From Candidatus Latescibacterota bacterium (lineage in GTDB: Bacteria > Latescibacterota > UBA2968): DNA of 64,000 nucleotides. Under the pieces are notes generated by a model. That model saw only the letters and a program-made list of their open reading frames with translations. It searched no databases and was not told the origin of the DNA. The translations under genes and the position numbers were made by a program. The stretch spans positions 544,001 through 608,000 of the forward strand of contig OZ244960.1 in the NCBI GenBank assembly GCA_965222605.1. The letters run 5' to 3'. Positions 5,986 through 42,429 of this stretch are shown here, one piece after another. How positions within the stretch are numbered: position 1 is the first letter of the stretch; every line of letters begins with the position of its first letter.

Positions 5986-6062
5986 ATGGTTTTCTCCCTC
6001 CGTTGCAGCAAAAATCATTCGAATCAGACGATCCTTGCCTGAATGAGCTTGTTTTCTTTTTC

Positions 6063-6091
6063 AGTTTATCGCCTCTCAGCCCAAAATTCAA
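6063..6091 (-). promoter_or_regulatory. Sigma70-type promoter for leftward genes
   Basis: TTGAAT-17 bp-TAAACT; a homologous element lies at 29038-29066. Confidence 0.55.
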
Positions 6092-6194
6092 GCCAAATAC
6101 CACGAGCTATACCTTGTGTGGGACAAGCCAATAGTCTATATTTCTAATAGCTCTTATTCTCAAAACTTTAGCATTTTTTGTGAAAGGCCTCTCG

Positions 6195-8663
6195 ATGAAC
6201 ACAGCCCTCAAATGTGTTGCACCCGCCCTGCTCTGTTTCTTGCTCTCTGCAACGCTTGCCGCTCAGGAAGCCCAGATTGACTCTCTCATTGCCCAGGGAC
6301 AGGCTGCCTTTGAAGCCAACAAAAAAGACCAGGCCATCAAAGCACTCACAGCAGCCATCAAACAGAATCCCGATAACATCCAGACCTACCTCGCCGTTGC
6401 CCGCATATACATCAAGGCGGAGTATCTGAACCACGCGATGAAGGCATTCAAAGAAGCCCTCAAACTCAATGATGCCTCGCCAGAAGCCCAGACCGGCATT
6501 GCAGAGATCTACTATAAAAAAGCCTCTGGCGGGATCATGGCTGTTTACCATGCCCGCAAAGCTGTCAGCGCGGCCCGGCGCGCCACCCGACTCGACCCCA
6601 CCTACGCGTCCGCCTACGTCCTCCTCGGTCGCGCTTATATCCGCCTGAATGAGAACCACACGGCTGCCTCGCGGGCTTTTGCACAGGCATTGACACACCA
6701 GCCCGACAATCCCGAAATCGCCTACCTCCTGGGCACTTCCTATATTGAACTGCGCCGCAATGCCGAAGGTCGTCAGCGCGACAGCCAGATGATCCTGAAC
6801 GAATCCACCCTCAAAAACCTCGGACACCACCTCGAAAATGCTCGCTTCCTCCCCATCGCCGCGCAGATACTCTTCGATAAAGGAGAGCCGGAAAAAGCCC
6901 TCAATATCTTTGAGCAATTCATCGCCACCCTGCCTGAAACAGAACGGGCCTACTACGACGACATCGCCAGGGTGGGAACCAAAGAAGAAATCAAAACCTA
7001 CGAAGCAACCCCCGAAGCGGAACGCCCCGCCTTCCTCGAACAATTCTGGGCCAAGCGCGATTTCGATTTGCTCACCGAAGTCAACGAACGCCTTATCGAG
7101 CACTACCGCAGGGTGTGGTATGCGCGAAACCACTTCGCCGAAGCCAAAACACCCTGGGATGCGCGGGGAGACATCTATATCCGCTACGGCGACCCCGACT
7201 ACCGCGCGCGTTCTGGCAGGGCCAACCCCGAAATCACGCCCGCCGTAGAACAGGTCAAAGAACGTCTCGCCCTGGCCCTCTATGGTCCCGAAGCGATGGA
7301 CGAAGTTTTTACCGGGCCGGTCTATCCCATCCGTTCCAACCAGTCTTTTGTGGGCGAACTCGATCCCGCGGCTCTCGCACGCACCGATGAAGGCGGCAAT
7401 ATTCTCGTACCCCCCGGCACATTTGAAGGCAACCAGGACGAATTCGTCCTCACAGAAGCTCTTGGGGCAGATGGGGAGGCAAGCGGTGAAGTCGGAGAAA
7501 TTGGGCAGTTGGCCCTCGACGAATACCAGCGGCGGCAGATGCGCCCCGAAAACCAGCACCACTTCTTGCCCGTCACCTCACGAGGCGACATGACCATTGT
7601 GTCCTGGGAAACCTGGGTCTATACCCACATCGGAGAAGGCATCGAAATCACCTTTACCAACGAGTTGGGCAGCGGTGTTTACAGCTACGCACCACTCCCC
7701 GACTTTCCCCACGAAGAAACCACCATTGGCCTTCACCGGTACTCACTCCTCGCGTATTACGCCCCCGAGGCCATCGCCAACCGCACGGTCAGCGAAGTCC
7801 CCGACTTTTACACGCCCGGCGGCCCCATGTCAGGGCTTGGCTTTCACTATGACTTTGCAGACTTTCGCGGGTCAGATGGCACCACCCGCCTGGAAATCTA
7901 CTACGGCATCGATCCCATAGAAATGGGCACCTTTGCTTCGGGCGACACCTCCACAATTGTCGCTGACTGCGCCGTCATCCTGGCCGACACCTCCTACACG
8001 AACGTTTACCGCTCACAAGACGCCATCTTTTACCGGTCTATCGGCCACCGCATGTGGCCCGAAGGCTCCTTCATCCCCACCCTCATCCCAATCGATGTTC
8101 CCCCCGGCAACTACCTGCTCACAGTACAGGTCAACGACCGCGCTGCCGAACGCAAAGGTATTTATCGCCATCAAGTACACGTTGAGCCTTATCAATCCAA
8201 CGCCTTGCAACTCAGCGACATCCAGCTAAGCTGGAACATCTCGGAAAACCCGGGTGACGAAAAATTCCGCAAAGGCGACGTCTGGGTCGTGCCTATGATC
8301 TCCCGCGCCTATCAGAAAGACCAGAGCGCGTATGCCTATTACGAACTCTACAACCTCACCCGAAACGAATTTGGGCAAACCCGCTATCGCGTCACCTATA
8401 CCATTACCGTGGAAGATCCAATACGCCCCTTCAATCTGGTCCGCAGCAGCGTTGGTGCGCTTGCCAGGATATTTCAGCGGCAGGACAGAACGCAGGTCAA
8501 AGTCAGCTTCGACCAGACCGGCAACGAACAATCTATCGCCGGGTATTTTGAACTCAGCTTGAAAAAAGTCAAAGCCGGTTACAACCGCCTCACCGTCACA
8601 GTCGAAGACCTCAACAACGGACAAAAAGCCGCCAAAGAAATCCAGTTCAGATATAAAAAATAG
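6195..8663 (+). CDS. TPR + GWxTD-domain protein (copy 1)
   Basis: Signal peptide, N-terminal TPRs, 'FLEQFWAKRD...NERLIEHYRRVWYA...PWDARGDIYIRYGDPD' and 'WETWVY'; C-terminal Ig-like domains with LQLSDIQL. Confidence 0.85.
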   Translation: MNTALKCVAPALLCFLLSATLAAQEAQIDSLIAQGQAAFEANKKDQAIKALTAAIKQNPDNIQTYLAVARIYIKAEYLNHAMKAFKEALKLNDASPEAQTGIAEIYYKKASGGIMAVYHARKAVSAARRATRLDPTYASAYVLLGRAYIRLNENHTAASRAFAQALTHQPDNPEIAYLLGTSYIELRRNAEGRQRDSQMILNESTLKNLGHHLENARFLPIAAQILFDKGEPEKALNIFEQFIATLPETERAYYDDIARVGTKEEIKTYEATPEAERPAFLEQFWAKRDFDLLTEVNERLIEHYRRVWYARNHFAEAKTPWDARGDIYIRYGDPDYRARSGRANPEITPAVEQVKERLALALYGPEAMDEVFTGPVYPIRSNQSFVGELDPAALARTDEGGNILVPPGTFEGNQDEFVLTEALGADGEASGEVGEIGQLALDEYQRRQMRPENQHHFLPVTSRGDMTIVSWETWVYTHIGEGIEITFTNELGSGVYSYAPLPDFPHEETTIGLHRYSLLAYYAPEAIANRTVSEVPDFYTPGGPMSGLGFHYDFADFRGSDGTTRLEIYYGIDPIEMGTFASGDTSTIVADCAVILADTSYTNVYRSQDAIFYRSIGHRMWPEGSFIPTLIPIDVPPGNYLLTVQVNDRAAERKGIYRHQVHVEPYQSNALQLSDIQLSWNISENPGDEKFRKGDVWVVPMISRAYQKDQSAYAYYELYNLTRNEFGQTRYRVTYTITVEDPIRPFNLVRSSVGALARIFQRQDRTQVKVSFDQTGNEQSIAGYFELSLKKVKAGYNRLTVTVEDLNNGQKAAKEIQFRYKK

Positions 8664-8680: not shown

Positions 8681-8713
8681 AAAAAGGCGACCGAAAAACT
8701 CGGTCGCCTTTTT
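8681..8713. terminator. Bidirectional rho-independent terminator
   Basis: aaaaaggcgaccga-aaaac-tcggtcgccttttt between convergent genes. Confidence 0.9.
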
Positions 8714-8732
8714 ACATGCTCAACACAACGAG

Positions 8733-9674
8733 CTAAAATGCAAAGCCCACCCCAAACCGCAAGGGTGTATTCAGATCGTGTTTGGACTGCTGCCACGCCA
8801 CATCCGCCGTGATCTTTGTCCCGACCAGGGGCAACTTCACGCCTGCACCTGCTGTAACCCCAAAGGAATCGTAGCGGAACATATATCCTGCCCGCAGCGC
8901 CAGCATATTGCCCACCCAGGCTTCGCCGCCCACATGATAGCGCTCTTCCCAGTTGATCAGGAAGTTCATCTCAAACGCCCCGGTGATATAAAACGGATCG
9001 CCTTGCTGCCCATAGACCTCGGCAGCGGTTCCCAGATTGAACGACAGAGGTTGCTGGAACTGCCGCCGCAACACCACTGTGTCCTTTCCGAAGTTCCGCA
9101 ATGCCATTGACAGTCTCAGGCTGCCAAGCCCGGTGTAGAACTTGGTGCCGAAATCCACATTGAAAGTCGTGTGGTTGGTCAGGTCCAGATCCTCGCGAGC
9201 CAACATAAATCGGATGCCAAAGGACAGCTTGTCCGTGAACTTGCGGCTATAAATGAGACTAAAAGCCGATGTGCCCAGGCTGAGGATTCGACCCGTGCCT
9301 CCCGGCTGCAAAATCGTGGTCTCCTCTACATCCTCTGGCTTAAAGGTCAGGATACTGACCCCGATGGTATGCACACCGCTTGTATAAGCTATAGCCCCGG
9401 TGTTGAATTTAGAATTTACGAACCACATCGAATGGCTCAGCGACACTTCCACTTTCTCCACACCCGTCATACCGGCCGGATTCCACCACGCGGCATTGAC
9501 ATCGTCTGCGATAGTTGCATAAGCACTCCCCATTGCCACGGCTCGAGGGCTTTGCGCCACCGCAAGGGGTGAGAAGATTGTCAAGTCCGGCCGCTTGATA
9601 AGCCCACCTGCATCTGCTGGAACAGCCATCAGTGTCGTGGCGAGCACGCAGATGACAAAAACTTTTTTATACAT
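8733..9674 (-). CDS. PorV/PorQ-family outer-membrane beta-barrel (copy 1)
   Basis: 'SPRAVAMGSA...DVNAAWWNPAG' signature, LALRAGY, terminal aromatic residue (GFAF), signal peptide. Confidence 0.85.
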   Translation of the reverse strand: MYKKVFVICVLATTLMAVPADAGGLIKRPDLTIFSPLAVAQSPRAVAMGSAYATIADDVNAAWWNPAGMTGVEKVEVSLSHSMWFVNSKFNTGAIAYTSGVHTIGVSILTFKPEDVEETTILQPGGTGRILSLGTSAFSLIYSRKFTDKLSFGIRFMLAREDLDLTNHTTFNVDFGTKFYTGLGSLRLSMALRNFGKDTVVLRRQFQQPLSFNLGTAAEVYGQQGDPFYITGAFEMNFLINWEERYHVGGEAWVGNMLALRAGYMFRYDSFGVTAGAGVKLPLVGTKITADVAWQQSKHDLNTPLRFGVGFAF

Positions 9675-9695
9675 ACTTGCACTCCTTATTCAGAG

Positions 9696-9721
9696 GGGCG
9701 ATAGGCACAGACCTACCGCCC
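9696..9721 (-). promoter_or_regulatory. Intercistronic mRNA stem-loop
   Basis: gggcggtagg...cctatcgccc pairs on the minus (mRNA) strand with G-U pairs; no U-tract. Confidence 0.5.
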
Positions 9722-9726
9722 GCCGA

Positions 9727-12231
9727 TTACCTGACAGATCCCCCGACCACCACAAATGTCCCGCGCTGGATCTTTCCATTGCTTTCTGGCGTCAGGGACT
9801 TCACCACGAAGAAATAGACCCCGGCCGGAACCTGTCCTGTCACCGCCTTGGTGAGCTGGATATATTCCGCTTCTCCAACCGTCGGATTATCGTGGTCAAA
9901 CTCCGACATCAGATCTCCGGAAACCGAGAAAATCTTCACATTGCACCTGGACGGCAAATTCACGAACCGAATTTTATCCGACCCTTCATAAGCGTGAGAA
10001 CCATCGGCCAAAAAGGGATTGGGCACCACAGACACCTTCGCTTCCAGGCGTTCGGCCTCTGCATAAGCGGCCACTGCCGGACTCGTGGGTATCCATGAGT
10101 ACCGGAAGAACTGCTCGGGAGCAGATAATCCGCTCTCCAGCCCGCTCTGCACCGACTGCTGGGCAGCCGGTGGCAAATCGGACAGCGTCTTGCTGCCATC
10201 GCTACTGGTCCAGGTGCTGTGCCCGGTGTCATAAGCCGTCACCGCATAGTAGTACGCAAATCCGGCCAGAGATGTATCGTCGGTGTAAGAATACCGATCA
10301 CCTTCTTTGTGGGTTGCGTCTCCGACCTTGATATCCTTCAGGAGTTGCCAGTTGTCGAAGTAAAAATCGCTGCGGTAAAGCCGGTAGCCTGCAATATCCT
10401 TGGCCTCGGCAGTACCCGCATAATCGGGATCTTCCAGATCGTCGATGCTCTGCCAGCTAATTTTGGCCGTAGCTGCCGGTGTGTTCGCGATCCAGGTGTG
10501 GATATCCGGCGGCGGGAGTGGCACATCGCCGCCCAGTTCGTACATCGCCTGTGCGTGCTGTGCGTGCCTCATCAAATTCCGCATGGCCTTGTCCGTGTGC
10601 AAATCGGCCTGATTCTGCGGGATATTCCGCTGCCAGCCCCACATATTTTCCTCTACTGGCATCGATGCTGTAAAAGCCGTCACGATCTTCACGCGGTCTC
10701 CTCTTTGCAAATCGTAGGGACCATAAGTGTGAGAAAACGCATGCCAGTTGGGCGACATGGGTTGCTCGGGAGTCTCGCCCCGTCGCGTGGGGTTGTCCTG
10801 CACTGGCAGAGGTGCAGTCGGATTGTCCGGCCAGCCCGTGCGTCCGGCGATATTGTACATGCTCACCCGCTCGCCCGGCTTAGCCACCGACACCAGCGCA
10901 ATACCGATCTCGTCGGTGCTGTGCCGGTTGATGTCCGGTTCTTCTTTGTGGGTGAACCACGGCGCAGCAAAGGGCTGCTCTGCCACCTTTGGAGCTATGT
11001 AATTTGCATAGTCGTCGTTCACAAAAGGCGGCGTGTAGTCAATCGGAATCGCCCCCACGTACTGCCCGGCCAGGAGTTCTCCGCGCAGTTGGAAGTTCAG
11101 CCGCCCCCAGCAGCACTGGCTTTCTGGCTGGTGGGGGTCGCCCGCATCGTCGTGCGCCGTCAGCGGAGAGTCCCAGTCAAACGCATAGCTCATCTTCATG
11201 CCCACAGCGTCAGCCACATCCGCGTGATTCGGGTCAGCTGTCCCATAGTTAGCCGCCTCGGTGTAGCGGTACACATCGTCCTGGATCACATTGTAGTTCT
11301 CCGACTCTTGCCGGCGCAACAGCCAGTAGTAGTACCCGCGCGCTCTATCTACGCGGTCGCGGTTGGCTGTGCCGCCTTCTGTGGGCCAGAAATAGTTGTA
11401 AAACGCGAAATAGACATCCTTCAGGTTCAGTCCAGCACCCCCGTTCAAGTCGGCAACGCCATCGCCGTCGGAGTCTCCCGTGTTCTCAAACACATTCTCC
11501 ACAATGATGAAGTCGTCCCAGTCACGGAACGTCCACTGGTAGATCTTCTTCGTGCCCTGGATCCCGGCCTCTGTCGTCCACTTGGCAATCGCCACCAGTT
11601 CTCCAAACCGCTTGTGCTCTGGCTTCATATACGTATGGAAATCCCAGTTGTGGATCTCCACAATATTGTCCACACCCGGGTGCGGCTGCCCCGGATACCA
11701 GTTCTTGGCCTCCGCGATCGGAATTCCCTTGAGCGGATGCTGAGGATCCATCCCCACACCCATTTGCCCTTCGATTTCCGTACTCACTGGATACGCCATC
11801 GGCGTGATATCCGGGCTGGTGGTCAAGCTCGTAAACGATACCACGAGTTCTTTGCCGCGCGAGGGCGTGTATTCTGATGGGTCGGGCCTGGTAATAATAA
11901 ATGTTCCCAGGCTCCGCGCTGTGGCCGTTCTCAGCAAATAGTTTTGCACCCACTGATTGGACCCCGGCCATCCGCGACTATCCCACAAACTGCCCGGCAA
12001 GCGGTTGCGACCCGGGTAGGTCACGCCCTCCATGCTGGCGCGCCGGCTCCCATCTCGATCCGGACCGTGCATGCCCGTGTTCATCAGCCCCGTCCAGAGC
12101 TTGCTGCGCCGCAGGTTGCGCCACGGTAGCCGAGGAATATTCTGAGCGGCTACCTCGCAGGCCAGCGACATCACAAAGATTCCCACAAGGATTGCCCCGG
12201 CCGTGCGAGAAAATTTCGCATACATTTTCAT
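9727..12231 (-). CDS. Large secreted protein with FN3-like domain and T9SS type-A-like C-terminal sorting domain (copy 1)
   Basis: Signal peptide after RBS GAGGA (ATG 12231); 'DIAGYRLYRS...YYYAVTAYD' FN3 pattern; 'VVPNPF...IRFVNLP...IFSVSG...AGVYFFVV' CTD pattern. Confidence 0.75.
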   Translation of the reverse strand: MKMYAKFSRTAGAILVGIFVMSLACEVAAQNIPRLPWRNLRRSKLWTGLMNTGMHGPDRDGSRRASMEGVTYPGRNRLPGSLWDSRGWPGSNQWVQNYLLRTATARSLGTFIITRPDPSEYTPSRGKELVVSFTSLTTSPDITPMAYPVSTEIEGQMGVGMDPQHPLKGIPIAEAKNWYPGQPHPGVDNIVEIHNWDFHTYMKPEHKRFGELVAIAKWTTEAGIQGTKKIYQWTFRDWDDFIIVENVFENTGDSDGDGVADLNGGAGLNLKDVYFAFYNYFWPTEGGTANRDRVDRARGYYYWLLRRQESENYNVIQDDVYRYTEAANYGTADPNHADVADAVGMKMSYAFDWDSPLTAHDDAGDPHQPESQCCWGRLNFQLRGELLAGQYVGAIPIDYTPPFVNDDYANYIAPKVAEQPFAAPWFTHKEEPDINRHSTDEIGIALVSVAKPGERVSMYNIAGRTGWPDNPTAPLPVQDNPTRRGETPEQPMSPNWHAFSHTYGPYDLQRGDRVKIVTAFTASMPVEENMWGWQRNIPQNQADLHTDKAMRNLMRHAQHAQAMYELGGDVPLPPPDIHTWIANTPAATAKISWQSIDDLEDPDYAGTAEAKDIAGYRLYRSDFYFDNWQLLKDIKVGDATHKEGDRYSYTDDTSLAGFAYYYAVTAYDTGHSTWTSSDGSKTLSDLPPAAQQSVQSGLESGLSAPEQFFRYSWIPTSPAVAAYAEAERLEAKVSVVPNPFLADGSHAYEGSDKIRFVNLPSRCNVKIFSVSGDLMSEFDHDNPTVGEAEYIQLTKAVTGQVPAGVYFFVVKSLTPESNGKIQRGTFVVVGGSVR

Positions 12232-12255
12232 GTCATATCCTCTATTAAGTTGGAT

Positions 12256-12286
12256 CCGCGGTGTGGACACTCCGCCCACACCGCGG
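12256..12286 (-). promoter_or_regulatory. Intercistronic mRNA stem-loop between TBDR and cargo gene
   Basis: Perfect 11-bp stem ccgcggtgtgg/ccacaccgcgg, extendable by G-U pairs on the minus strand. Confidence 0.6.
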
Positions 12287-12298
12287 CACTGTGCCTGC

Positions 12299-15200
12299 TT
12301 ACCAGGTCAACCGCAACCCTGCAAATACCAAACGCGGATCGGTCCTCGTATATCTGCTCAACTCACTGGCATCGCCGCCGAACTGCACGAACAACGGATT
12401 GGTAGGCTGTGATTCAAGCAATCCCCACCGCACGTAGTCTGCGCTCGTGGATGGCGAGCCTTTGAAATTGAACAAATTTTCGATCTCCACATAAAGCAAC
12501 GGGCGGATGCCCCTGATGTTGAACCCTTTCTGGAAGCTGAAATCTACCGACGAGATCGTGGGACCCTCTTTCTTCAGGTTCAGACTGGTTTTCGGATCCT
12601 GGAAATCGAAGATTCGCCCCGTGAAGATGCGGTAGATCATGTTCACCCGAACATCGCCGAACAGCTTGCTGCCCCAGAACATCTCGCCGGGACCAAAATC
12701 GGGTGGGCTGGCATAGACCAGCACCAGGCTCCCATTTGTCCGCGTGGCATCGCTGCGCCCACCTTCCACACTCCAGCCCGTCGTCGAAAAGGCGTAAAGC
12801 CCCCGCAGCGCTGCCTGTTCCTCACTGGACAGCCCGCTCTGCTCCCACAGGGGATAAAATTTCCCATCGTTGGTCGCATACATCGCACCCACGCCGAACT
12901 CGCCAGCCAGACCCTTATCTACTACCTCCTGCGCCTTTGCCTTCAATTCCTCCAGCTTGGCGCCGGTCGGCGGAGCGGGGATCTCTGCACCCGTATTCGG
13001 GTCAATCGTGTAACTGACCCAGTACCGGTTGGGATCGGCAATATACGATGCATCCGGATAAATATTGCCGCCCATATTGCCCCGCTTGGTGCCGCCAATG
13101 GTCAGGCGCTCGCCCCAGCCCAAGTTGAGTGCGGCTTTGAACGAGAAGTTGTGCTTCAACCCCTTCTTCAATGCCAGTTCGATACCACGGGTCGTGGTGT
13201 GGCCTCTCGGACCCTGCGAACGAGTCTTGGCCTTGCTACCAATCTGTGGGTCCTGGAAGCGAGCAGTATTAACACTCAAAAATCCATTGGTGATGCGGTA
13301 ATAGGCAGTGCCCTGGAAGGAATAGTCGCTGATGAAATTCCACTCCGTGCCCAGTTCAAAAGCCGTAGAGACCTGCGAATGCTGCAAGGAGAAGAACTGA
13401 TCAATCACAAATCCCGAGCCAAACGAGTCGTTGCGGACCAGGCTGTTGTTGTACTCTTCAGCACTGATGTTTCCATCGTTGTTGTGGTCGATCGAGTGCG
13501 GTCCCGTCGCCCGCCAGTTCTGCTGGTATATCCGGCGGAAATCCGGACGGGTGTGAAACTTCCCGTAGAAGAAATGAATCTTCGACTTGGCCGTAATCGG
13601 GTGCGATATCCCGACCCGGGGCATAAACCAGTTCATCGGCTGCATATCGCCATACATCGTATGGTTCCGGAAGCGCGTGTAGTTGTAGCCCATCGGCGCG
13701 CCCTGATAGGGATGGAGGGGAACCACTCCGCCGCTATACCGCTCGTAGCGGAAGCCCGCATTGATGATCAGTCCTTCAAACTCCATCTTGTCCTGCACAT
13801 AAGCGTGGAGCTCGGTGGGCGTAATCCCCACACCGGGTTCATAGCGCTTGCCCCAGTAAATCAGCCATCGATTCCGCTCATCCACATCTTCGTAGGTCTC
13901 GGTCTTCCAGTTGTCGTAGCGATAAAATGTAAAACCGCCCTTCAGAAAGTGCGTGCGAGTCACCTGGCTGGCCAGATCGAACCGCGCTGCCAGCTTGTTT
14001 TGCTGCCCGACGCGCAGATCCCGCACCTGCCCGGAATCGGTGTAGTACCACCCATCATCGTCTAAGGATGGATTCACCGTCGTGCTGGGAATGTCAATGG
14101 TGTCCTGCTTGCTGGCAATATACGACAGCCTCACTTCGTAAAATGTCTTTGCCGATAGGGTGTGGATGCTGGACACATAAAACATGTTGTCCGTCACCTG
14201 CCACTCACCCCCATAGCGTCCGCGTTCTTCCAGGAAAATCGCCCTGGAATTAAAGCTGTCTGCATAGCGACCTTGGCGGCTGGAATACAGCCCACCCACA
14301 CGGAGCTTGATATCGGGTGTGGCGCTATAGGTTACTTTGTAGCTCACATCCGCGTTAAATGGCTCGCGCTCAGTCGGCTGGGGCAGGTTCCGGGCCTGAA
14401 TATCGTGCTTTGTAGTGGCAAAGAACGACAGATCACGGTTAATAGGCCCCGAAAGAGATGTCTCTAAAAAATGCCCTTGCACATCTGTATAATCGCTCGA
14501 AGGCCGCTGATGCACCTTCCGACCATTGGCTGTTTCATTGGCCCACTCAGAATCGCCATATTGCAGCCGACCCTGATGTACGAAGCTATCGTAAGCATTG
14601 TTGCCCCAGTGCTTCTGTTGCGCTGGCGAGTACCGATAGTGAAACTGTCCGTGGTAGTCCCGACCGCCATCTTTGGTTACAATCTGGATAGAGCCGGTAT
14701 TGCCATATTCGGCATTCAACCCGCCGGCCAGCACCGTGATCTCTGAAATCGCCGACGTATTGACATCGCCGCTCCAGTTCTGCGTGCCCCCACGGGTGCC
14801 TGTCCCACGCCGACCATCCGAGTGCGTCATACGCACACCATCTACCATATACTCGGCCACTTCACCGCCATTGCCCACAAAGGCATTGCGGATGCGATTT
14901 GTACCGTCGGTATTGACCCCCGCCTCCAGCTCGATAAAGGAATCCAGATCGCGGACAATGGGCAGCACTGCAATATCCTCGGCGGTCACCACATAACGGC
15001 TTGCCGTCACATCTGCCTCCACCGGAGGCCGCTCTGCAATCACGGTCAACTCACCCAGTTCCAGAGCTGCTTCATTGAGCGAGAAATCAACTGTCGTCGT
15101 CAGATCCGACGCAACCCGCACATCGGACCTGGTCGCACCCGTGTACCCAACCATCGACGCCTTCACTGTATAACTCCCCGGATCGACAGACAGGACAAAA

Positions 15201-15391: not shown

Positions 15392-15413
15392 CGAAAAACC
15401 TCCTTAGTGAGAA

Positions 15414-16112
15414 CTACCAGTAATATTTAATCCCGCCCACCAGATCTATCGCCTGCATTGGGAAGACTTTTTCAAGCCCCCAGTCCTCCAGGGGACGGAG
15501 TTCGCCCATAATCACATTATACCGCAAGCGGAGATCGATCACAAATTGCTCGGACCCCACGATGCTGATCCCACCTCCAAATGAGAACGTCAGTGCTGCC
15601 ACCTTGTCGTGAAAGGCGGGATTTAGAACGCTGGTATCCAGGGACGTTCCCGACTGCCCGGGAAAAACCAACCCCGACACCTCATTCGAAAATCCGAAAA
15701 ACCCGACGCCACCCATTATATAAGGCGATGTGCCTTTGCCCACTTCCTTGAAATGGAGCAGGGCGCTGGCGACCAGGCTATTGAACGTCACGCCTTGATC
15801 GACATTTGGACTGCGGTAGTTCTGGCTATCAATCGGCCAGGTGAACTCTCGTGTATCCAGATCGCCGCCCAGCATCGAAGAATAGTGATACTCAATCTCG
15901 GCGACAACTCTCGACGAGGCTATATAGTTGTAGCTAAGTCCCAATTTGGGAGAGGCAGAGTACCACTCGCCAAATTTGAACAACGGTACGTTTGCACTCC
16001 CGAAAAACCCGATCCCCGACTGGCCTTCTTCTAAGGCTCCAGCCGTGGAAACCGAGACCAGAACCGCCCCAGTGAGACATAGTATTCTAAACATCGCTCT
16101 CAACATCCGCAT
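15414..16112 (-). CDS. Small outer-membrane beta-barrel protein (copy 1)
   Basis: Signal peptide after GGAGGG RBS, alternating beta-strands, 'SPYIMGGVG', C-terminal KYYW. Confidence 0.75.
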   Translation of the reverse strand: MRMLRAMFRILCLTGAVLVSVSTAGALEEGQSGIGFFGSANVPLFKFGEWYSASPKLGLSYNYIASSRVVAEIEYHYSSMLGGDLDTREFTWPIDSQNYRSPNVDQGVTFNSLVASALLHFKEVGKGTSPYIMGGVGFFGFSNEVSGLVFPGQSGTSLDTSVLNPAFHDKVAALTFSFGGGISIVGSEQFVIDLRLRYNVIMGELRPLEDWGLEKVFPMQAIDLVGGIKYYW

Positions 16113-16338: not shown

Positions 16339-16368
16339 AATATGCATTAAAATTTCTCCCAATGTCAA
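16339..16368 (-). promoter_or_regulatory. Promoter of the OMP-TBDR-cargo-PorV operon (copy 1)
   Basis: TTGACA-18 bp-CATATT; identical boxes and spacing at 40241-40270. Confidence 0.65.
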
Positions 16369-32680: not shown

Positions 32681-32688
32681 TCTCCTTA

Positions 32689-33615
32689 GAAGCTGTTTTA
32701 AAACCCCTCGCTTAAGCGAGTCTGTTGATTAAGAGGTAAATCATAACGATGTAAATAAAGGCTTCACTACTGTCGGTCAAGTCTTCATAATCCTTTGATA
32801 GTCGGCGAAAATTAAATAACCAGGCAAAGGTGCGCTCGACGACCCACCGGCGTTTGACGAGTTGAAAGCCTTTGCCTTTTGGGGTGACAACCTCAAGATC
32901 AATCTTATGTGTGTGCTTCTTAGCAGCGACCCATTCTTTAAGGTCTTCGCCGCGATAGCCGCCATCGACCCATAGCTTGCGTAAGCGTGTCTGTCCGCTA
33001 TCAAAATACTGATTGATCACCTGCTTGAGGCCATCTCGATCTTGGAGATTGGCAGGTGAGACATAGGTGCTAATGACGAGTCCGAGGGTATCAACGAGAA
33101 GATGGCGTTTGCGTCCATTGACCTTTTTGCCAGCATCGTAACCCTTTGACTTTCCTTGGGTTGCTGTCTTAACACTTTGGCTGTCAATGCAGCCTGCTGA
33201 TGCGGTAGGCTTGCGTCCCTGTCGTTTGCGTTCTTTTTGTGTGAGCACCTGTTGCACCCGTTCAAAGATGCCTTGCTTGCGCCAACGATTGAAATAGCCA
33301 TACACGGTCTGCCAACAGCCAAAGGTAGGAGGCAGCATGCGCCATTGGCAGCCGGTCTTCGTCAGATACAGGATGCCATTGAACACTTGTTGCAAATTGG
33401 CAGGTGGGCGTCCAGAGCCCCCTTTTCGCCATTTACCTTTAGGCAGCAAGAGGATCAGCAGTTGCCATTGCGCTTGGGTGACATTTGTCGGATATTCCCT
33501 GTGCGTATTCATCTTTGTCCTTTCGTTTCAGGGTGATTTGCATAACCTGAATTTGGACAGATGAATACGCTTTTTCAACTCTTTTCTTCACTCACAATAG
33601 TTTTAAAACAGCTTC
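32689..33615 (-). mobile_element. IS5-family (IS1031-type) insertion sequence, 927 bp
   Basis: Perfect 16-bp terminal inverted repeats gaagctgttttaaaac/gttttaaaacagcttc, TTA target duplication (32686-32688, 33616-33618), intact transposase. Confidence 0.95.
32712..33512 (-). CDS. IS5-family DDE transposase
   Basis: 'TGCQWRMLP', 'IDSQSVK', 'GYDAGKKVNGRKRHLLVDTLG', 'VDGGY', 'RWVVERTFAW...RRLSKDYE'. Confidence 0.95.
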   Translation of the reverse strand: MNTHREYPTNVTQAQWQLLILLLPKGKWRKGGSGRPPANLQQVFNGILYLTKTGCQWRMLPPTFGCWQTVYGYFNRWRKQGIFERVQQVLTQKERKRQGRKPTASAGCIDSQSVKTATQGKSKGYDAGKKVNGRKRHLLVDTLGLVISTYVSPANLQDRDGLKQVINQYFDSGQTRLRKLWVDGGYRGEDLKEWVAAKKHTHKIDLEVVTPKGKGFQLVKRRWVVERTFAWLFNFRRLSKDYEDLTDSSEAFIYIVMIYLLINRLA

Positions 33616-33621
33616 TTAAAA

Positions 33622-36171: not shown

Positions 36172-39100
36172 CTACCAGGTCACCCTCAGCCCCGCGAAGA
36201 TCTGTCGGCGCTCGTTCTCAAACCGATTCAATTCACTCACATCTCCAAACTGCTTGAAGAGCGTATCGTCCGGACGGGGCTCCAACAGCCCGAACCGGAG
36301 ATATTCCACAGGGGTCCTCTCTGCCTGGGTGCGCATCAACTGCTGGTTAAACAAATTGTTGATCTCCACATAGAGCAGCGGCCTTATACCCTTGATGTTA
36401 AACCCTTTCTGGAAGCTGATATCCACCGTGTCGCTGGTGGGGCCTTCCCGTTTGGCCTTGATATTGGTGATCGGATCGGTAAAGATGAATATCTGGCCGG
36501 TATAGATCCGGTAGATCAGGTTCAGCCGGATATCTCCAAAGAGCTTACTTCCCCAGAACCTCTCGCCAGGGCCGAAATCGGGTGGGCTGGCATAGATGAG
36601 CACCAGGCTCCCGTTCGTGCGACGAGCGTCGTCCCGGCTCCCCGCGCGCCAGGTTACTGTCTGAAGGGCGTAGAGACCCTGGAGTTGCGCCCTGCTCTCC
36701 TGGGACAATCCGGGCATTTCCCAGAGCTTGAATGTACGCCTGAAGTCCGCACCACTACCCAGTTCCCCGGCGATCAGTTTGTCCACCTGTGTCTGGGCGG
36801 CGGCTTGCAACTTCTCCAGTTCTGCTCCGGTCGGCGACTGGGGAATTTCCTCACCAGTGGTCTGATCGATCGTCCACTTATTCCAGTACCGGGTCGGATC
36901 GCCAATAAACGAGGCATCCGGATAGACGACCACACTGCCGTGACCCGCCTTGGTCCCACCAGTGTCCAGGTGCTCGCCCCACCCCATGTTGATCGCCGCT
37001 TTGAAGGAAAAGTTGTGCTTCAGCCCCTTTTTCAGCGCAAGTTCCAGCCCCCGTGTGGTGGCGTGTCGCTTGGGCCCAAAGGCTCGCGTCTTGCCCTTGG
37101 TGCCCAGCCCGGGATCCCGGAAGTCCCCTGTTTGCACCAGCAAAAACCCGTTGGACACCCGGTAATAGGCCGTGGTCTGAAGGGTGTAATCGCTGATGAA
37201 GTTCCACTCCGTGCCCAGTTCAAACGCCGTACTGATCTGGGTGTCCTGGAAACTGAACACATTGGCTGCAAATGCCGATCCAAACCCATCGTTGGCGAAC
37301 AAATTGTTGTTCTCCTCGGCCGGATCGATCTGTCCATTGCCGTTCTTGTCCAGAGAGGCCTGGCCCGCAGAGATCCAGCGATTCCTGAAGAAGAGTCCAA
37401 ACTCGGGCCGCGTGTGGTACTTCCCGTAGAAGAAGTGAATCTTCGATCTATCCGTAACCGGATGGGAAACCCCCAGCCGGGGCAGGATCCACTGGAGAGG
37501 CTCCATCTTACCCCAGGGCGTATATTTGACAAACCGGGTATAAGACTGGGTCATCGGTGCGGACTGAGTAATGTATAGCGGTACCTCCGCTCCCCAGAAG
37601 CGCTCATAGCGCAATCCCGCATTCACAATCAACCCTTCAAATTCCATTTTGTCCTGAATGTACCCCGTCAACTCCATCGGGGTCATCCCCTCCCGTAGCT
37701 GGCCGCGTTTTCCGTAGTAATACAGTCGGCGGTTCCGGGTCTTGGTATCTTCACGGGCGTCAAAAATACTGTAAGCATCAAATCGGGTCAAATTGAATCC
37801 CGCCTTCAGAAAGTGCCCCCGGGTCACCTGACTGGACAGATCTCCCCGCAGGCTCAAGCGCTTCTGCTCGCCAAGCTGGAACCGGCGCTGCGTGCCCGGC
37901 GTGACGTAGAACCAGGCGTCACTATCCAGATCCGGATCCACCGTCGCAGTCGGAATATCCGAGGTATCCTGCTTGCTTGCATAATACGATAGCCGCACCT
38001 CGTAAAAAGTTCGGGCCGACACGGTTTGTATAAGCGAGGCGTAGAGCATGTTGTCCGAATTTTTTTGGATGCCCCACCTGCTCTCAGTCTCGGGCAGGAA
38101 GATCGATCGGGCGTCGAAACTGGAACTGACCCGACGCTTATTCCACGAATACAACCCGCCCATACGCACCCGCATACTGGTTGAAGCATCGAATGTCACC
38201 TTGTAGCTATTATTCGTGTTAAAAGGCGTACGCTGCTCGGGCTGGGGCAGGCTTTTGGGCTGGAAGTCGTGCTGCGTACTGGTAAAAAAGGCAGCATTTC
38301 TACCGATCGGTCCCGATAACGAGGCCTCCAGAAAATGCCCTCGAACATCGGTATAGTCATCGGACGAGCGCTGATGTACCAGCCTGCCCGAATTATCGGT
38401 CTCCTTGTCCCAGACCGGATCTCCGTAATTCAGGTGGCCCCTGTGGACCGCGCTTTCATAGGCATTGTTCCCCCAGTGCTGCTGTTGCCCGGGCGTAAAC
38501 CGGTAGTGGACCTGTCCGTGATAATCCCGGCCTCCGTCCCGGGTCACAATCTGAATCGATCCGATATTGCCATATTCGGCGTTCAGCCCGCCGGCCAGCA
38601 CCGTGATCTCTGCAATCGCCGACGGATTGACATTGCCCCGCCAGTTTCGGCCGTCCTGCGTGGTCAACCGGATGCCATCTACCATATACTCGGCAACTTC
38701 GCCGTTTCCGGCCGCCCGGTAATAGGCATTCCGGACCCGATCCGTGCCATCTACATTGATCCCGGCTTCCAATTCCACAAAGCTGTCCATCGAGCGAACA
38801 AGGGGCAGAGCGTCAATTTCCTCGGCCGTCACCACATAGCGGCTCTCCGTCACATCGGCCTCCACCGGCGGCCGCTCTGCCACCACGGTCAATTCACCCA
38901 GTTCCAGAGTCGCTTCATTGAGCGTGAAATCCACTTCTGTCGTAATATCTGTCGTGACCCGCACGCCGGTTTTGCTCGCCGGAGTATAGCCGACTATCGA
39001 CGCCTTCATCGTATAACTCCCCGGATCTACGGACAGGATCAAATAGTAGCCATCCCTATCGGTCGTTGCCCCCCGATTCGTGCCTTCTACCACTATGTTC

Positions 39101-39234
39101 ACACCGGGCAGAGGCTCGCCTTTTTGATCGAATACATGGCCGATAATCTTCCCCGTCGTCGCCGCCCCGGCCAGGCTACAGACGCAGAAAACAAAGGCCA
39201 CCGCAAAAATCAAACACAGTCCTCGTTTGTCCAT
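36172..39234 (-). CDS. TonB-dependent receptor (copy 2)
   Basis: Paralog of 12299-15391; GGLNAEYG plug motif, ends GLRVTW; start placed at ATG 39234 downstream of AAGGAG. Confidence 0.9.
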   Translation of the reverse strand: MDKRGLCLIFAVAFVFCVCSLAGAATTGKIIGHVFDQKGEPLPGVNIVVEGTNRGATTDRDGYYLILSVDPGSYTMKASIVGYTPASKTGVRVTTDITTEVDFTLNEATLELGELTVVAERPPVEADVTESRYVVTAEEIDALPLVRSMDSFVELEAGINVDGTDRVRNAYYRAAGNGEVAEYMVDGIRLTTQDGRNWRGNVNPSAIAEITVLAGGLNAEYGNIGSIQIVTRDGGRDYHGQVHYRFTPGQQQHWGNNAYESAVHRGHLNYGDPVWDKETDNSGRLVHQRSSDDYTDVRGHFLEASLSGPIGRNAAFFTSTQHDFQPKSLPQPEQRTPFNTNNSYKVTFDASTSMRVRMGGLYSWNKRRVSSSFDARSIFLPETESRWGIQKNSDNMLYASLIQTVSARTFYEVRLSYYASKQDTSDIPTATVDPDLDSDAWFYVTPGTQRRFQLGEQKRLSLRGDLSSQVTRGHFLKAGFNLTRFDAYSIFDAREDTKTRNRRLYYYGKRGQLREGMTPMELTGYIQDKMEFEGLIVNAGLRYERFWGAEVPLYITQSAPMTQSYTRFVKYTPWGKMEPLQWILPRLGVSHPVTDRSKIHFFYGKYHTRPEFGLFFRNRWISAGQASLDKNGNGQIDPAEENNNLFANDGFGSAFAANVFSFQDTQISTAFELGTEWNFISDYTLQTTAYYRVSNGFLLVQTGDFRDPGLGTKGKTRAFGPKRHATTRGLELALKKGLKHNFSFKAAINMGWGEHLDTGGTKAGHGSVVVYPDASFIGDPTRYWNKWTIDQTTGEEIPQSPTGAELEKLQAAAQTQVDKLIAGELGSGADFRRTFKLWEMPGLSQESRAQLQGLYALQTVTWRAGSRDDARRTNGSLVLIYASPPDFGPGERFWGSKLFGDIRLNLIYRIYTGQIFIFTDPITNIKAKREGPTSDTVDISFQKGFNIKGIRPLLYVEINNLFNQQLMRTQAERTPVEYLRFGLLEPRPDDTLFKQFGDVSELNRFENERRQIFAGLRVTW

Positions 39235-39259
39235 TGACACCATCTCCTTTCTTCTCGGC

Positions 39260-39961
39260 CTACCAGAAATATTTGACCCCCACAATCAGATCGAGTGCCT
39301 GAAGTGGAAAAGCCTTCCTCAATCGCCAGTCCTCCAGAGGACGGAGTTCGCCCAGCATAATATTGAACCGCCCCCGGATATCTATCAGATAATGTTCCGA
39401 CCCAACGATAGTCACGCCACCGCCCAGCGAAAATGTCAGGGCCGCTCGCTTGTCCTTGTAAGGAGAAAGCAAGAGGGTCTGATTCAGGGTCTGCCCCGTC
39501 TGTCCAGAGAAAATCAGCCCCGATACCTCGTGCGAATACCCGTAAAATCCTAGCCCACCCTGCAGGTAGGGCATTGTTCCGCCTTGATTCAAGTCCCGGA
39601 AGTGGACCAGAGCAGTGGCTGAAAAGCTGTGGAACCACATATTCTGGGACGCATTCGGACTCCGGTAATTTTTTTTATCTACCGCCCAGGTGAACTCCCG
39701 GCTGTCCAGGTCTCCGCCCCCCATCTTTGAATAGTGATACTCAATCTCTGCAATCACCCGCTGCGCGGCCGCATAGTTATAGCTCACCCCGAGTTTCGGA
39801 GAAACAGAATACCACTGCTTGAATTTTCCGATCGGAACGTGCGCGCTTCCGAAAAACCCGATCCCCGACTGGCCTTCTTCTAAGGCTCCAGCCGTGGAAA
39901 CCGAGATCAGAACCGCCACAGTGAAGCATAGTGTTCTAAACATCGCTCTCAACATCCGCAT
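39260..39961 (-). CDS. Small outer-membrane beta-barrel protein (copy 2)
   Basis: Paralog of 15414-16112; ends KYFW. Confidence 0.75.
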   Translation of the reverse strand: MRMLRAMFRTLCFTVAVLISVSTAGALEEGQSGIGFFGSAHVPIGKFKQWYSVSPKLGVSYNYAAAQRVIAEIEYHYSKMGGGDLDSREFTWAVDKKNYRSPNASQNMWFHSFSATALVHFRDLNQGGTMPYLQGGLGFYGYSHEVSGLIFSGQTGQTLNQTLLLSPYKDKRAALTFSLGGGVTIVGSEHYLIDIRGRFNIMLGELRPLEDWRLRKAFPLQALDLIVGVKYFW

Positions 39962-40240
39962 AAGCTGGCCCTCCTTTGAGATGGTAAAGAATACAACGCG
40001 GTATCGCACGCAATGCAAATACCTCTTCTTTCTGTGGCTCAATTTATTTTTTTTAAATAGAATTAATTTCTTTCAACTTCTTGTAAATATCAACTTCTAA
40101 TTTTCAGACACAGATACAAAAAAACCATCTATACCACGCCCTCCCGTTGGTCTTTAGACGGTTCTAACTCCACGCTAATAATGATGATAACTTAGTTGGC
40201 TATAATTTCATGAGTGTGAGTTTTTACTTATATCAAACAT

Positions 40241-40270
40241 AATATGCATTGAATTTTCCCCCAATGTCAA
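40241..40270 (-). promoter_or_regulatory. Promoter of the OMP-TBDR-cargo-PorV operon (copy 2)
   Basis: TTGACA-18 bp-CATATT, homologous to 16339-16368. Confidence 0.65.
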
Positions 40271-40287
40271 GCATTTTTTCAACCCTT

Positions 40288-42429
40288 TCACCCGGCCAGC
40301 GAGAACGCGCACACCCGGCTCCAATCGCTCCACACCCCATGTGCATTTCGCGCGCGCACGCGCCAATAATATTGCTCATCCGGGTTCAACAGCCCTGCAA
40401 ACTGCGGTTGCCAGCACGTTTTTCCCGCGTATGCCGTGCGGCTCACATATCGGTCAAAAGTGGGACACACGCACCACCTGAAATCCGAGCATCTGCTCAC
40501 CTGTACGTGATAATCATCCACCTGTGACCCATTTCCCTCAGGCCGTTTCCAGCGAAACTCAAAATCCGTCTGATTCAACTCTGCCCCATCATCGGGAAAC
40601 ACCGGTTCGGGTATATCCGGCGGTTTAATACAGTGCTCCTCCTGCCATCCGTAGATTATCCGAACATTCCGTTTTCCCTTTGTCTCGTCTCGATATTGAA
40701 TGTGATTTTCACCACAGAACAGCGATGGCAAAGATCGCGTTGCACACTGCAAATCTGTATCAAACCAAATTTTATCCACCCCCACATTCTCGACATTCGC
40801 ACCAGCCCACATCGCCACCTGAACATAATATTCATAACGCGGTCCAACCCGCCATCCAGAATCCCAATCTCCCCGCCAGTCGAACAACGCCGGATTCAAA
40901 TACCAGTCCAGATCCACACATGCACTTGCCCGATGTCCCGTTGCCACCCAGACTGACCGCCAGTCCTCTCCATCCCAAGACAGCAACACTTCAAGCCCGT
41001 CTTCCCGGCTCGCCCGTCTGTAGGACAAGCCCACTCGCGCTCCGGCAATTGGATATGGCGAACACACCTTCCAGATCATCCGGGAAACGCGCTGCTCCTG
41101 AGCCGGATGAACAGCCGGCAATCGACTGAATGTTTCCTGCATCACATCCACATGCTGTTCTAACCCCCTCAATGCCAGCGGATTCCGCAGATCGGGCCGA
41201 TAGACCAGCTTGCCATTGGAATACCGCACCTCCGGGTGCAACCGACGCCCCCGCACCACTGTTTTGCCCGCCTGATCCCAATAGCGCACCAACTTTTCGC
41301 CCGGCCGCAAGCGCATCGCCATCGTATGGGGCGGTGGCAACTGCGCCGTATCCTGTTGCACCCGGCCATCTCCTCGCGTCCATGCAGCACTCGGGTTCGG
41401 CGGATACACAAATTCCCGATTCTTGAACTGCGCGCTGTAATAATCCTTCTCCGCCAGATCTTTTCCCGCCAGCCCCAGGTTCCGGTGCGACCTCCTCATC
41501 AAATCTGGATCTCGCGTCAGATCCGCAACACTCGCCACAGTGCGGTTATCGCGTTTTAAAAAAAACACCATCTGATCCGTATCGAGCAAATGCCACGCCC
41601 CATTTGCCCACGCTTCAAAAATCGTATGGCTGCACTGCCGCCCCCGACCGTGTCCATCCAGAATACCGCCAACCCATACCTCGCGCGACTTCACCCCCAT
41701 CACCTCCCCCAGCCGACTCGTGGCAATCGCATATCCAATACACCCTTCAAACCCATACGCGTTAAACAGCTTTACCGGATCACTCACATCGTCATACCAC
41801 GATATCCCGCATCGGCTATCGTAAACCTCGTCCACGACAAACTGCCACAACGCCATCATCCGCTCTTCTTCGCCCAAATCTCGCCCGCCTATCGCTTCTT
41901 TCGCCATCGTCTCCACCGACCACCAATCCCGCTGTCCGTTTGTCACCAGCCACGGATTCACCACATCTGTCTCACCCGTATTCTCGATTACCACATACAG
42001 ATTTGGCTCAAACACCTGATCATAAGGCGGCATGCTCGAATTAGGTCCCGGGCAATACACCTCCGGTCCAAGAGTCACCGCATTCGACTCATCTACATAC
42101 CCACCCACCTGCATCTCAAACACCTCTGTCTTCTGCGTCAGTTCGGCCTGTTTCTCACAAGGCGCACGGGGCACCTGCACCTCAACGGGTTCCATATCCT
42201 TCAACTCGTCCTGAGTTGGATACCTATCAGCACCGATGGCGACATAATAATAAGTCTTCCCCGGTATCAAATCCGCCACATCCACATACCGATCCTCTCG
42301 GGCAACGCCAACTTCCTCAAATACACCTCCTACCCGATCCGCGCGATAGATCCGCACTCCCCGGGCGTCTTTGCAGTCCACCTGCATAGTAACGCAATTG
42401 ACAGCCGTATCCAAAATTTTGAGCGACAT
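40288..42429 (-). CDS. Hypothetical protein with transglutaminase-like Cys-His-Asp core and FN3-like termini
   Basis: 'YGFEGC', 'SHTIFEAWANGAWHLLDTD'; terminal 'YYWRVRARNAHGVWSDWS'; RBS GAGGAGG. Confidence 0.55.
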   Translation of the reverse strand: MSLKILDTAVNCVTMQVDCKDARGVRIYRADRVGGVFEEVGVAREDRYVDVADLIPGKTYYYVAIGADRYPTQDELKDMEPVEVQVPRAPCEKQAELTQKTEVFEMQVGGYVDESNAVTLGPEVYCPGPNSSMPPYDQVFEPNLYVVIENTGETDVVNPWLVTNGQRDWWSVETMAKEAIGGRDLGEEERMMALWQFVVDEVYDSRCGISWYDDVSDPVKLFNAYGFEGCIGYAIATSRLGEVMGVKSREVWVGGILDGHGRGRQCSHTIFEAWANGAWHLLDTDQMVFFLKRDNRTVASVADLTRDPDLMRRSHRNLGLAGKDLAEKDYYSAQFKNREFVYPPNPSAAWTRGDGRVQQDTAQLPPPHTMAMRLRPGEKLVRYWDQAGKTVVRGRRLHPEVRYSNGKLVYRPDLRNPLALRGLEQHVDVMQETFSRLPAVHPAQEQRVSRMIWKVCSPYPIAGARVGLSYRRASREDGLEVLLSWDGEDWRSVWVATGHRASACVDLDWYLNPALFDWRGDWDSGWRVGPRYEYYVQVAMWAGANVENVGVDKIWFDTDLQCATRSLPSLFCGENHIQYRDETKGKRNVRIIYGWQEEHCIKPPDIPEPVFPDDGAELNQTDFEFRWKRPEGNGSQVDDYHVQVSRCSDFRWCVCPTFDRYVSRTAYAGKTCWQPQFAGLLNPDEQYYWRVRARNAHGVWSDWSRVCAFSLAG

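Follow-up and report, generated by a model that had tools for sequence, protein, structure and literature searches.

The 64,000-nt stretch analysed here (the window) comprises positions 544,001 to 608,000 of contig OZ244960.1 from a Candidatus Latescibacterota bacterium and contained the same set of five genes twice. The genes encode a GWxTD/TPR protein, an outer-membrane barrel of the PorV/PorQ family, a surface protein of ~800 aa, a TonB-dependent receptor (TBDR), and a small outer-membrane protein (OMP). In the list of open reading frames (ORFs) of the window, the two sets were collinear and all ten ORFs were open. Pairwise BLASTP between copy 1 and copy 2 gave protein identities of 67% for GWxTD/TPR, 57% for the barrel, 63% for the ~800-aa protein, 60% for the TBDR, and 67% for the small OMP, with matches that spanned essentially the full length (843 columns for the ~800-aa pair); the identity of the DNA was 68-73%. 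This likeness is far beyond chance. With 57-67% protein identity and ten open ORFs, the repetition of five genes in the same order and orientation, as claimed in the first-pass annotation of this DNA, was borne out. Its description of a duplicated five-gene module was correct in that both copies exist, but they are two members of a family of 28, in which just three genes form the invariant core.

Both receptors (12299-15391, minus strand, 1030 aa in copy 1; 36172-39285, minus strand, 1037 aa in copy 2) are generic TBDRs with the layout of a CarboxypepD_reg domain, a Plug domain, and a large barrel, the last being judged from length. In the hidden Markov model (HMM) scan, Plug (PF07715) gave 32.5 and 36.9 bits, over the cut-off of 23.9, and further matches were obtained with PF13620 (70 bits, copy 1) and PF13715 (66 and 72 bits). 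The SusC/RagA model TIGR04056 gave 69.9 and 70.8 bits, under its cut-off of 368, and this match was limited to the N-terminal 250 of 981 profile positions. A PDB sequence search with the TBDR returned just two weak scaffoldin matches, to the N-terminal domain. The small OMP (15414-16160, minus strand, listed as 248 aa with the likely start at an internal Met at 16112; 39260-40042, minus strand, in copy 2) scored 19.1 and 18.2 bits on PF13505 (OMP_b-brl), short of the gathering score of 28.7, and its nearest Atlas clusters in a feature search, taken as a lead only, were OMP_b-brl at 0.98. The last residue is aromatic in the TBDR and the small OMP, and each of the five proteins starts with a Sec-type signal peptide without a lipobox.

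No match to the SusD family was found in the 11 window proteins scanned. The sole SusD_RagB (PF07980) match in the genome (3841329-3841709, minus strand, with one in-frame TAG) lay outside the repeated units, which agrees with the earlier claim that the system is SusD-free. That match adjoins a different TBDR (3842662-3845574).

The surface protein and its outer-membrane barrel

The ~800-aa surface protein (9727-12279, minus strand, 850 aa in copy 1; 33622-36105, minus strand, 827 aa in copy 2, with the C-terminal motifs of copy 1) matched no Pfam or NCBIfam family in the HMM scans. The AlphaFold2 (AF2) model of the copy 1 protein, built from an alignment of 35 homologues, had a pLDDT of 82.5 and a pTM of 0.85, and consisted of a signal peptide, a super-sandwich at about residues 47-585, an Fn3 domain at about 595-685, and a C-terminal domain (CTD) at about 745-850. 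The N-terminal domain is a galactose-mutarotase-like β super-sandwich, with its top match in the VIA wide search to 1lf6_A (Z 17.9, rmsd 3.1, 235 aligned), the super-sandwich N-terminal domain of a bacterial glucoamylase. Glucodextranase and phosphorylases of GH94 and GH65 were matched as well, and at lower ranks there were aldose epimerases and some lyases. Foldseek with the whole model returned mainly Fn3 tandems, and PorZ (5m11) was among the tandem β-sandwich matches; for the N-terminal domain, VIA alone supplied the match. With a profile of the protein, the number of cluster representatives matched was 6589 at E ≤ 0.001, falling to 2825 at E ≤ 1e-10 and to 485 at E ≤ 1e-30; the weaker clusters may match just the Fn3 or tail parts.

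The C-terminal consensus of the 35 homologues starts with VVPNPF and shows the motif pattern of type IX secretion system (T9SS) tails. In the model, the region of residues ~750-844 is all-β, which we read as an Ig-like sandwich. One genomic paralogue scored 22.1 bits on the tail model TIGR04183, for which the cut-off is 23. Among ten C-termini of a distant subfamily, seven matched the C-terminus of PorU, five that of PorZ, and five TIGR04183 (best E 1.4e-5); the NCBI name of one distant member is T9SS type A sorting domain protein. Because of the VVPNPF pattern, the PorZ fold match, and the PorU, PorZ, and TIGR04183 matches in the distant subfamily, we conclude from these comparisons that the C-terminus of the ~800-aa protein is a divergent T9SS-type CTD. 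The motif pattern, the fold match, and the distant members thus support the proposal in the first-pass annotation that the protein is a cargo with a T9SS-like CTD.

The barrels (8733-9674, minus strand, 313 aa in copy 1; 31711-32673, minus strand, 320 aa in copy 2) both belong to the PorV/PorQ family NF033709, with 145.3 and 132.7 bits against a cut-off of 90 over profile positions 3-326 of 326. A profile of the barrel paralogues matched F. johnsoniae PorV (6h3i_F) at E 8e-20. The complex of the copy 1 barrel (22-paralogue alignment) with residues 730-850 of the ~800-aa protein (35-homologue alignment) was modelled with ipSAE values of 0.90, 0.90, and 0.89, whereas the best of three controls gave 0.00. 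The runs had at least 86% of contacts in common, and the pLDDT of the partner was at least 68. Of 157 solved complexes, 116 attain the pass mark applied here, as do 2 of 215 mismatched pairs; these counts are approximate for user-supplied alignments. A confident interface (ipSAE 0.90 vs 0.00) was therefore predicted for the pairing of cargo and barrel that had been proposed, and the model supports binding of the CTD to the barrel.

Several T9SS components were found in the genome. SprA was over its cut-off (630 bits summed), 14 canonical TIGR04183 tails were present, and a PorU-like gene scored 237 + 72 bits, under the cut-off of 420. The best PorV candidate of the genome, ahead of the barrels of the units, lies outside them at genome positions 1504701-1505669 and reached 155 bits, under 250. 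Candidates for GldK (TIGR03525) were rejected, their matches being to FGE-sulfatase-domain proteins only.

A family of units in the genome and elsewhere

Searches of the genome, a single contig of 6.34 Mb, by tblastn and phmmer with the five proteins found 28 units of TBDR, ~800-aa protein, and barrel genes, in invariant order and on one strand. The small OMP gene precedes 22 of the 28, and 27 of the 40 Plug-domain matches of the genome fall inside the units. The identity matrices of four families correlated over 21 units, a set that omits a near-identical third copy and six units without the small OMP, with Spearman coefficients of 0.40-0.68; the highest (0.68) was that of the ~800-aa protein with the barrel, and none of 500 permutations reached any observed correlation. 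Since these matrices correlate, the units appear to diverge as units, and because kinship of the paralogues inflates the test, we read the result only as an indication that shuffling is not frequent.

The third copy of operon 1 (genome 4049200-4056769) is 98.15% identical over 7571 nt and is recent. It contains four genes and lies directly upstream of another unit. One of its ends is immediately beyond the barrel gene and the other 56 nt upstream of the start of the OMP gene, so that promoter, leader, and GWxTD gene are all missing from it.

Related loci were sought in one-genome-per-species contigs by a pattern scan, in which the pattern was a 10-sequence alignment and the flanking genes were called with HMMs of this genome's paralogues. 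The scan gave 52 loci, and their titles named metagenome-assembled genomes of Latescibacterota and a few of Gemmatimonadota/Gemmatimonas. The TBDR gene was directly upstream of the ~800-aa gene in 52/52 loci and the barrel gene directly downstream in 51/52, the sole locus without a barrel stopping at its contig edge; the small OMP was present in 35/52. The names in a ten-cluster sample of the ~800-aa family include candidate division KSB1 and Candidatus Neomarinimicrobiota. For the distant subfamily, a scan with ten members found 76 metagenome loci, 74 of which encoded a ~800-aa-type protein at 100 bits or more. All 26 loci with room on both sides contained the trio, in the order TBDR-protein-barrel in 20 and TBDR-barrel-protein in 6. 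The linkage of TBDR, cargo, and barrel described in the first-pass annotation therefore recurred in 51 of the 52 Latescibacterota-type loci and in each of the 26 roomy metagenome loci. Some loci of the order TBDR-barrel-protein have two or three tandem ~800-aa-type genes behind one barrel gene.

Accessory genes, leader, and insertion element

The GWxTD/TPR gene lies on the strand opposite to the other four genes in both copies (6180-8663, plus strand, 827 aa in copy 1; 29094-31625, plus strand, 843 aa as listed in copy 2, where the signal peptide suggests a start near 29184). Both proteins contain the GWxTD domain TIGR04514 (58.9 and 57.2 bits, cut-off 28). The copy 1 protein matched many TPR families and scored 24.5 bits on PF20094, under the cut-off of 26.9; copy 2 did not match PF20094. 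The AF2 model (pLDDT 79.7, pTM 0.72) showed, in copy 1, TPRs at residues 1-260, an α/β region with invariant residues at about 260-540, and two β-sandwiches at 555-827. In two VIA searches with this model, TPR matches filled the lists, with no fold identified for residues 260-827, and the Atlas clusters found were GWxTD or hypothetical ones. Foldseek also listed transglutaminases, namely 7tvz_E (E 1.1e-6), 1nug_B, and 1ggy_A, which are protein 4.2, TGM3, and factor XIII, over about 358 columns at a TM of about 0.1. The GWxTD family is without an invariant cysteine, and these matches, which we take as a lead only, may reflect just the two C-terminal β-sandwiches.

Full-length GWxTD/TPR paralogues number 26 in the genome. 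Thirteen of them lie within 8 kb of a unit (expected 2.6, maximum 10 in 2000 random placements) and six within 500 bp (expected 1.2, maximum 7). Conversely, 12 of the 28 units have a GWxTD gene within 8 kb, regardless of side and strand. In three more, the barrel gene is immediately followed by a shorter GWxTD-like gene of 471-495 aa. Elsewhere, a full-length GWxTD gene was found in 20 of the 52 loci within 8-kb flanks, and a weak match in just 2 of the 74 metagenome loci, whose flanks are short. The GWxTD-unit link is real, facultative, and specific to certain subfamilies, because a convergent GWxTD gene is present in 17/17 orthologues of the window copies but in 3/35 of the remaining loci. 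The co-inheritance that had been proposed for this gene thus holds as enrichment near the units and in all 17 orthologues, but within 8 kb it covers just 12 of the 28 units, and it does not extend to most other loci or to the third copy. As the protein has a Sec signal and no lipobox, barrel, or CTD, the simplest inference is that it is probably a periplasmic accessory.

Genes for DUF6785/DUF6784 polytopic membrane proteins are located at both ends of the neighbourhood. One (2-1903, minus strand) runs off the start of the window and scored 366.7 bits on PF20581 and 75.8 bits on PF20580; the other (43706-45673, minus strand; PF20581, 280 bits) shares the strand of operon 2 and lies 3.7 kb upstream of it. 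Eleven hydrophobic segments were counted in one of these proteins by a Kyte-Doolittle scan. The genome has 56 full-length copies, and such a gene lies within 8 kb of 19 of the 28 units (expected 5.4, maximum 12 in 500 placements) and within 1 kb of nine (expected 2.5, maximum 7); often it immediately follows the barrel gene and shares its strand. This linkage, which is no less frequent than the GWxTD one, suggests that the DUF6785/6784 proteins are candidate inner-membrane permeases.

The surroundings of the other units were examined in a context scan of 153 non-overlapping ORFs of at least 150 aa within 6 kb, with the five families excluded. They include sulfatases, FGE-sulfatase, arylsulfotransferases, heparinase II/III, alginate lyase, PcRGLX-like, GH4, GHL10, beta-helix, and BNR proteins, together with many PhyH dioxygenases, GFO/IDH/MocA and short-chain dehydrogenases, sugar isomerases, and LacI, GntR, and ROK regulators; unrelated housekeeping genes are likewise among them. 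The window also encodes a sulfatase, an FGE-sulfatase, and two LacI paralogues. Judged by these families, the gene setting is like that of polysaccharide utilization loci (PULs). The LacI paralogues (21849-22877 and 23182-24210, both minus strand, both 342 aa) lie between the two copies and are possible regulators of the operons. PhyH-family (phytanoyl-CoA dioxygenase-like) genes, at 5101-6018, 54998-55816, and 56328-57143 and in many unit flanks, are unusually frequent. Directly upstream of operon 1 and on the same strand is a gene for a 182-aa Fn3 protein (16365-16913, minus strand), and further upstream, also on that strand, one for a 1600-aa protein (16933-21735, minus strand) with LRR, Fn3, cadherin, CBM_4_9, and LDL-receptor class B repeats. 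A 720-aa Fn3/Ig protein (40288-42450) is encoded at operon 2 in the place equivalent to that of the Fn3 proteins of operon 1.

Alignment of the two copies and their orthologues outlined a promoter and 5' leader on the minus strand of operon 1 (16161-16380) and operon 2 (40043-40275). The conserved promoters of the first-pass annotation were confirmed: upstream of the OMP gene, each copy has a TTGACA box, at 16368-16363 in operon 1 and 40270-40265 in operon 2, together with an AT-rich -10-like element. The TTGACA box is also present in five of six orthologous loci that we chose for alignment; the sixth, L034, is the most diverged and aligns poorly there. Upstream of the GWxTD gene there is a TTGTGT-N17-TATATT box. 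Promoter and leader of the window copies were not common to the other 26 units of the genome. Between the promoter and the OMP gene of copy 2, a hairpin followed by a U-run (about 40163-40118, minus strand) is kept in the orthologues. Its minimum free energy is -21 kcal/mol (z -3.08), and none of 200 shuffles was equally stable. In copy 1 the 3' half of the hairpin is deleted (matching place near 16240-16215, minus strand). The stem varies little, too little for judging covariation, and Rfam at gathering thresholds gave zero matches in the window. The hairpin may serve as an attenuator or as regulatory RNA.

In copy 2, an insertion sequence overlooked in the first-pass annotation (about 32685-33623, minus strand) separates the barrel gene from the ~800-aa gene. 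Its transposase (32712-33512) belongs to the IS5 family (NF033580, 240.1 bits, cut-off 110). The element has ten genomic copies that are 89-100% identical, and the insertion looks recent because one of them (genome 5587640-5588578) is 99.9% identical. It may uncouple the copy 2 barrel gene from the operon promoter.

All or part of the queried stretch was found in 20 of 24 sequencing runs listed; six runs are on record as RNA, and four of these, from three studies, were compared. Assembled RNA-library contigs cover the four-gene operon, one of 7430 nt over 8721-16128 and one of 6710 nt over 8703-15407. Since they are 90-95% alike, both stem from relatives. In two libraries labelled as sponge metagenomes, the contigs are mostly 95-100% alike, and the GWxTD region has lower or zero cover, although contig cover cannot rank genes and a stretch without cover proves nothing. 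These contigs are a hint, and no more, of expression of the operon as one block.

A possible uptake mechanism and its alternatives

In our judgement it is somewhat probable that each unit is a SusD-independent, PUL-like unit for TonB-dependent uptake, with a binding partner that is exported by the T9SS and tethered to a barrel. Sequence, models, and gene context are the grounds on which we infer the T9SS export, the retention of the CTD, the glycan substrate, any TBDR contact, and the functions of the OMP, GWxTD, and DUF6785 proteins. The TBDR, with its CarboxypepD_reg domain, plug, and large barrel, would be the import channel. The ~800-aa protein would pass the inner membrane via Sec and the outer membrane via the T9SS of the genome, using its divergent CTD. 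It would not be released; its CTD would stay on its own PorV/PorQ-family barrel, as in PorZ-PorQ and PorU-PorV of Porphyromonas gingivalis, and the super-sandwich would capture, and possibly process, a glycan beside the receptor. The small OMP would be a frequent fourth subunit, the GWxTD/TPR protein a facultative and probably periplasmic accessory, and the DUF6785/6784 protein a candidate inner-membrane permease. In excerpts of a T9SS review, the CTDs of PorU and PorZ are stated to be uncleaved and to remain on PorV and PorQ, and cognate PorV-like barrels are proposed to shield CTDs from cleavage (PMC10202324).

The barrel could also be a dedicated shuttle only, in which case the T9SS-exported ~800-aa protein would be cut by a PorU-like sortase and released or attached to a glycolipid like ordinary cargo, and a secreted or surface glycan binder or degrader would feed the TBDR without a stable complex. 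The genome has a PorU-like gene and 14 canonical CTD proteins suited to this route, the canonical cleavage pathway is described in the same excerpts (PMC10202324), and a shuttle would need the modelled CTD-barrel binding equally. One general PorV would, however, suffice for shuttling, yet each of the 28 units keeps its own barrel. The barrel moreover co-diverges with its protein (Spearman 0.68), and likeness of the CTDs to the retained ones of PorU and PorZ is no rarer than likeness to the general tail model. We consider both the shuttle and the feeding without a stable complex unlikely.

An enzymatic function of the ~800-aa protein, as a polysaccharide lyase, epimerase, or hydrolase in a "degrade and import" pair instead of a binding lid, appears a little less likely still. 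Although the fold is catalytic, or belongs to the catalytic unit, in some proteins, for example aldose 1-epimerases (3mwx_A, Z 12.7), the PL26 lyase 5xq3_B (Z 12.7), and the alginate lyase 3a0o_A (Z 12.5), and although numerous acidic residues, D368, D378, and E227 among them, are invariant in the family, the top matches are non-catalytic N-terminal domains of GH15, GH94, and GH65 enzymes, and no catalytic family was matched in Pfam or NCBIfam. The Plug domain of the receptor, which is over the cut-off, the catabolic enzymes, sugar regulators, and candidate permeases around most units, and the location of 27 of the 40 genomic Plug-domain matches within the units make it highly improbable that the unit is a device for surface display or adhesion without nutrient import, in which gene linkage reflects assembly needs only, despite the large Fn3, LRR, and cadherin-like proteins encoded beside both window copies.

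Other results weigh against an uptake unit with a barrel-retained binding partner. The "dedicated PorV" of the first-pass annotation is a member of the PorV/PorQ family but not PorV proper, as the barrels scored 44.3 and 34.4 bits on the PorV equivalog NF033710 (cut-off 250); they also failed the PorQ equivalog NF033711, with 59.1 and 44.4 bits against 220. Neither window ~800-aa protein matched TIGR04183 (cut-off 23 bits) or PF18962 at E ≤ 0.01, and at E ≤ 1 merely 5 of 35 family members matched PF18962 (Por_Secre_tail) and 8 of 35 CHU_C. The modelled complex fits retention as well as shuttling and cleavage, and its pass may reflect likeness to solved PorV complexes (the 6h3i and 8gl* entries), which presumably hold a bound CTD. 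Of the T9SS components named earlier (SprA, PorU, and GldKLMN), SprA and a PorU-like gene were present, but GldK yielded just the FGE-sulfatase-domain proteins and the GldL/GldM models TIGR03517, TIGR03513, and PF12080 were unmatched; the TIGR models matched no control genome either, and PF12080 (GldM domain) matched only E. coli among the controls, below the cut-off, so that these negatives do not establish absence. The super-sandwich occurs also in catalytic mutarotases and lyases, and a common fold shows no function. As IS5 splits the barrel gene of copy 2 from the operon, this copy either tolerates uncoupling or is impaired. The RNA-library contigs are silent on strand, ends, and level, and such libraries can contain DNA.

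The proposed uptake unit resembles the SusC/SusD (RagA/RagB) pair in its TBDR of ~1000 aa with an N-terminal CarboxypepD_reg-type domain and plug, in the adjoining gene for a surface partner of presumed substrate-binding role, and in occurring as many paralogues in one genome, with glycan-degrading enzymes and regulators around them. In contrast to SusC/SusD, the partner is no SusD-fold lipoprotein; its Sec signal has no lipobox and is followed by super-sandwich, Fn3 domain, and T9SS-type CTD; a third gene encodes the partner's own barrel, and the TBDR fails the SusC/RagA model (70 vs 368 bits). Pairs of the TbpA/TbpB type likewise combine a TonB-dependent transporter with a separately anchored surface binding protein, as proposed here, but TbpB is a lipoprotein and these pairs involve neither a T9SS nor an anchoring barrel. 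With PorZ-PorQ and PorU-PorV of P. gingivalis the units have in common a CTD protein that is predicted to sit on a PorV/PorQ-family barrel, and the family CTDs match the C-termini of PorU and PorZ. They differ in that there are 28 pairs, each in an operon with a TBDR, in barrels that fail the equivalog cut-offs, and in a carbohydrate-binding-type domain in place of a sortase or lipopolysaccharide-delivery domain. As in the SprB-SprF pairs of Flavobacteria, the cargo gene adjoins the gene of its own PorV-like barrel, according to the review excerpts, which name PorP/SprF barrels for type B cargo (PMC10202324), and 8 of 35 members weakly match the type B CHU_C. Unlike in those pairs, the barrel here belongs to the PorV/PorQ family (NF033709) instead of PorP/SprF, and the units have no connection to gliding adhesins and invariably include a TBDR.

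In excerpts of the 2015 Latescibacteria genome paper, TonB-dependent import is considered for B12 and iron only and porins are assumed for sugars (PMC4454575), and the trio is not mentioned in excerpts of a Caldithrix paper (PMC5317091). Literature searches, with subscription-only papers and supplements outside their scope, gave no description of the trio or of a function of GWxTD, and the word GWxTD was met in none of the papers searched.

Latescibacterota and their neighbours are widespread, uncultured, and thought to degrade algal and other complex polysaccharides. A broader proposal, which we put forward tentatively and with less confidence than the uptake unit itself, is that several uncultured FCB-group phyla (Latescibacterota, KSB1, and Marinimicrobia-like) build their main TonB glycan importers in this manner. 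A T9SS-exported binder, its uncleaved CTD plugged into a dedicated PorQ/PorV-type barrel beside the receptor, would take the place of the SusD lipoprotein lid, and the attachment principle of the T9SS would have been co-opted dozens of times per genome for utilisome-like complexes, with GWxTD/TPR proteins as periplasmic assembly helpers and DUF6785 as a new family of inner-membrane permeases. Outside Bacteroidota, where PUL prediction based on SusD yields nothing, the trio offers a marker by which PUL-like loci could be annotated. If the trio is the standard import device of these bacteria, a testable role would be given to two large unannotated families, the ~800-aa protein (485 clusters at E ≤ 1e-30) and DUF6785. 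The role of the T9SS would then widen from secretion and gliding to nutrient-uptake complexes, and the trio would be a second, independent answer to the problem that SusC/SusD solves in Bacteroidota.

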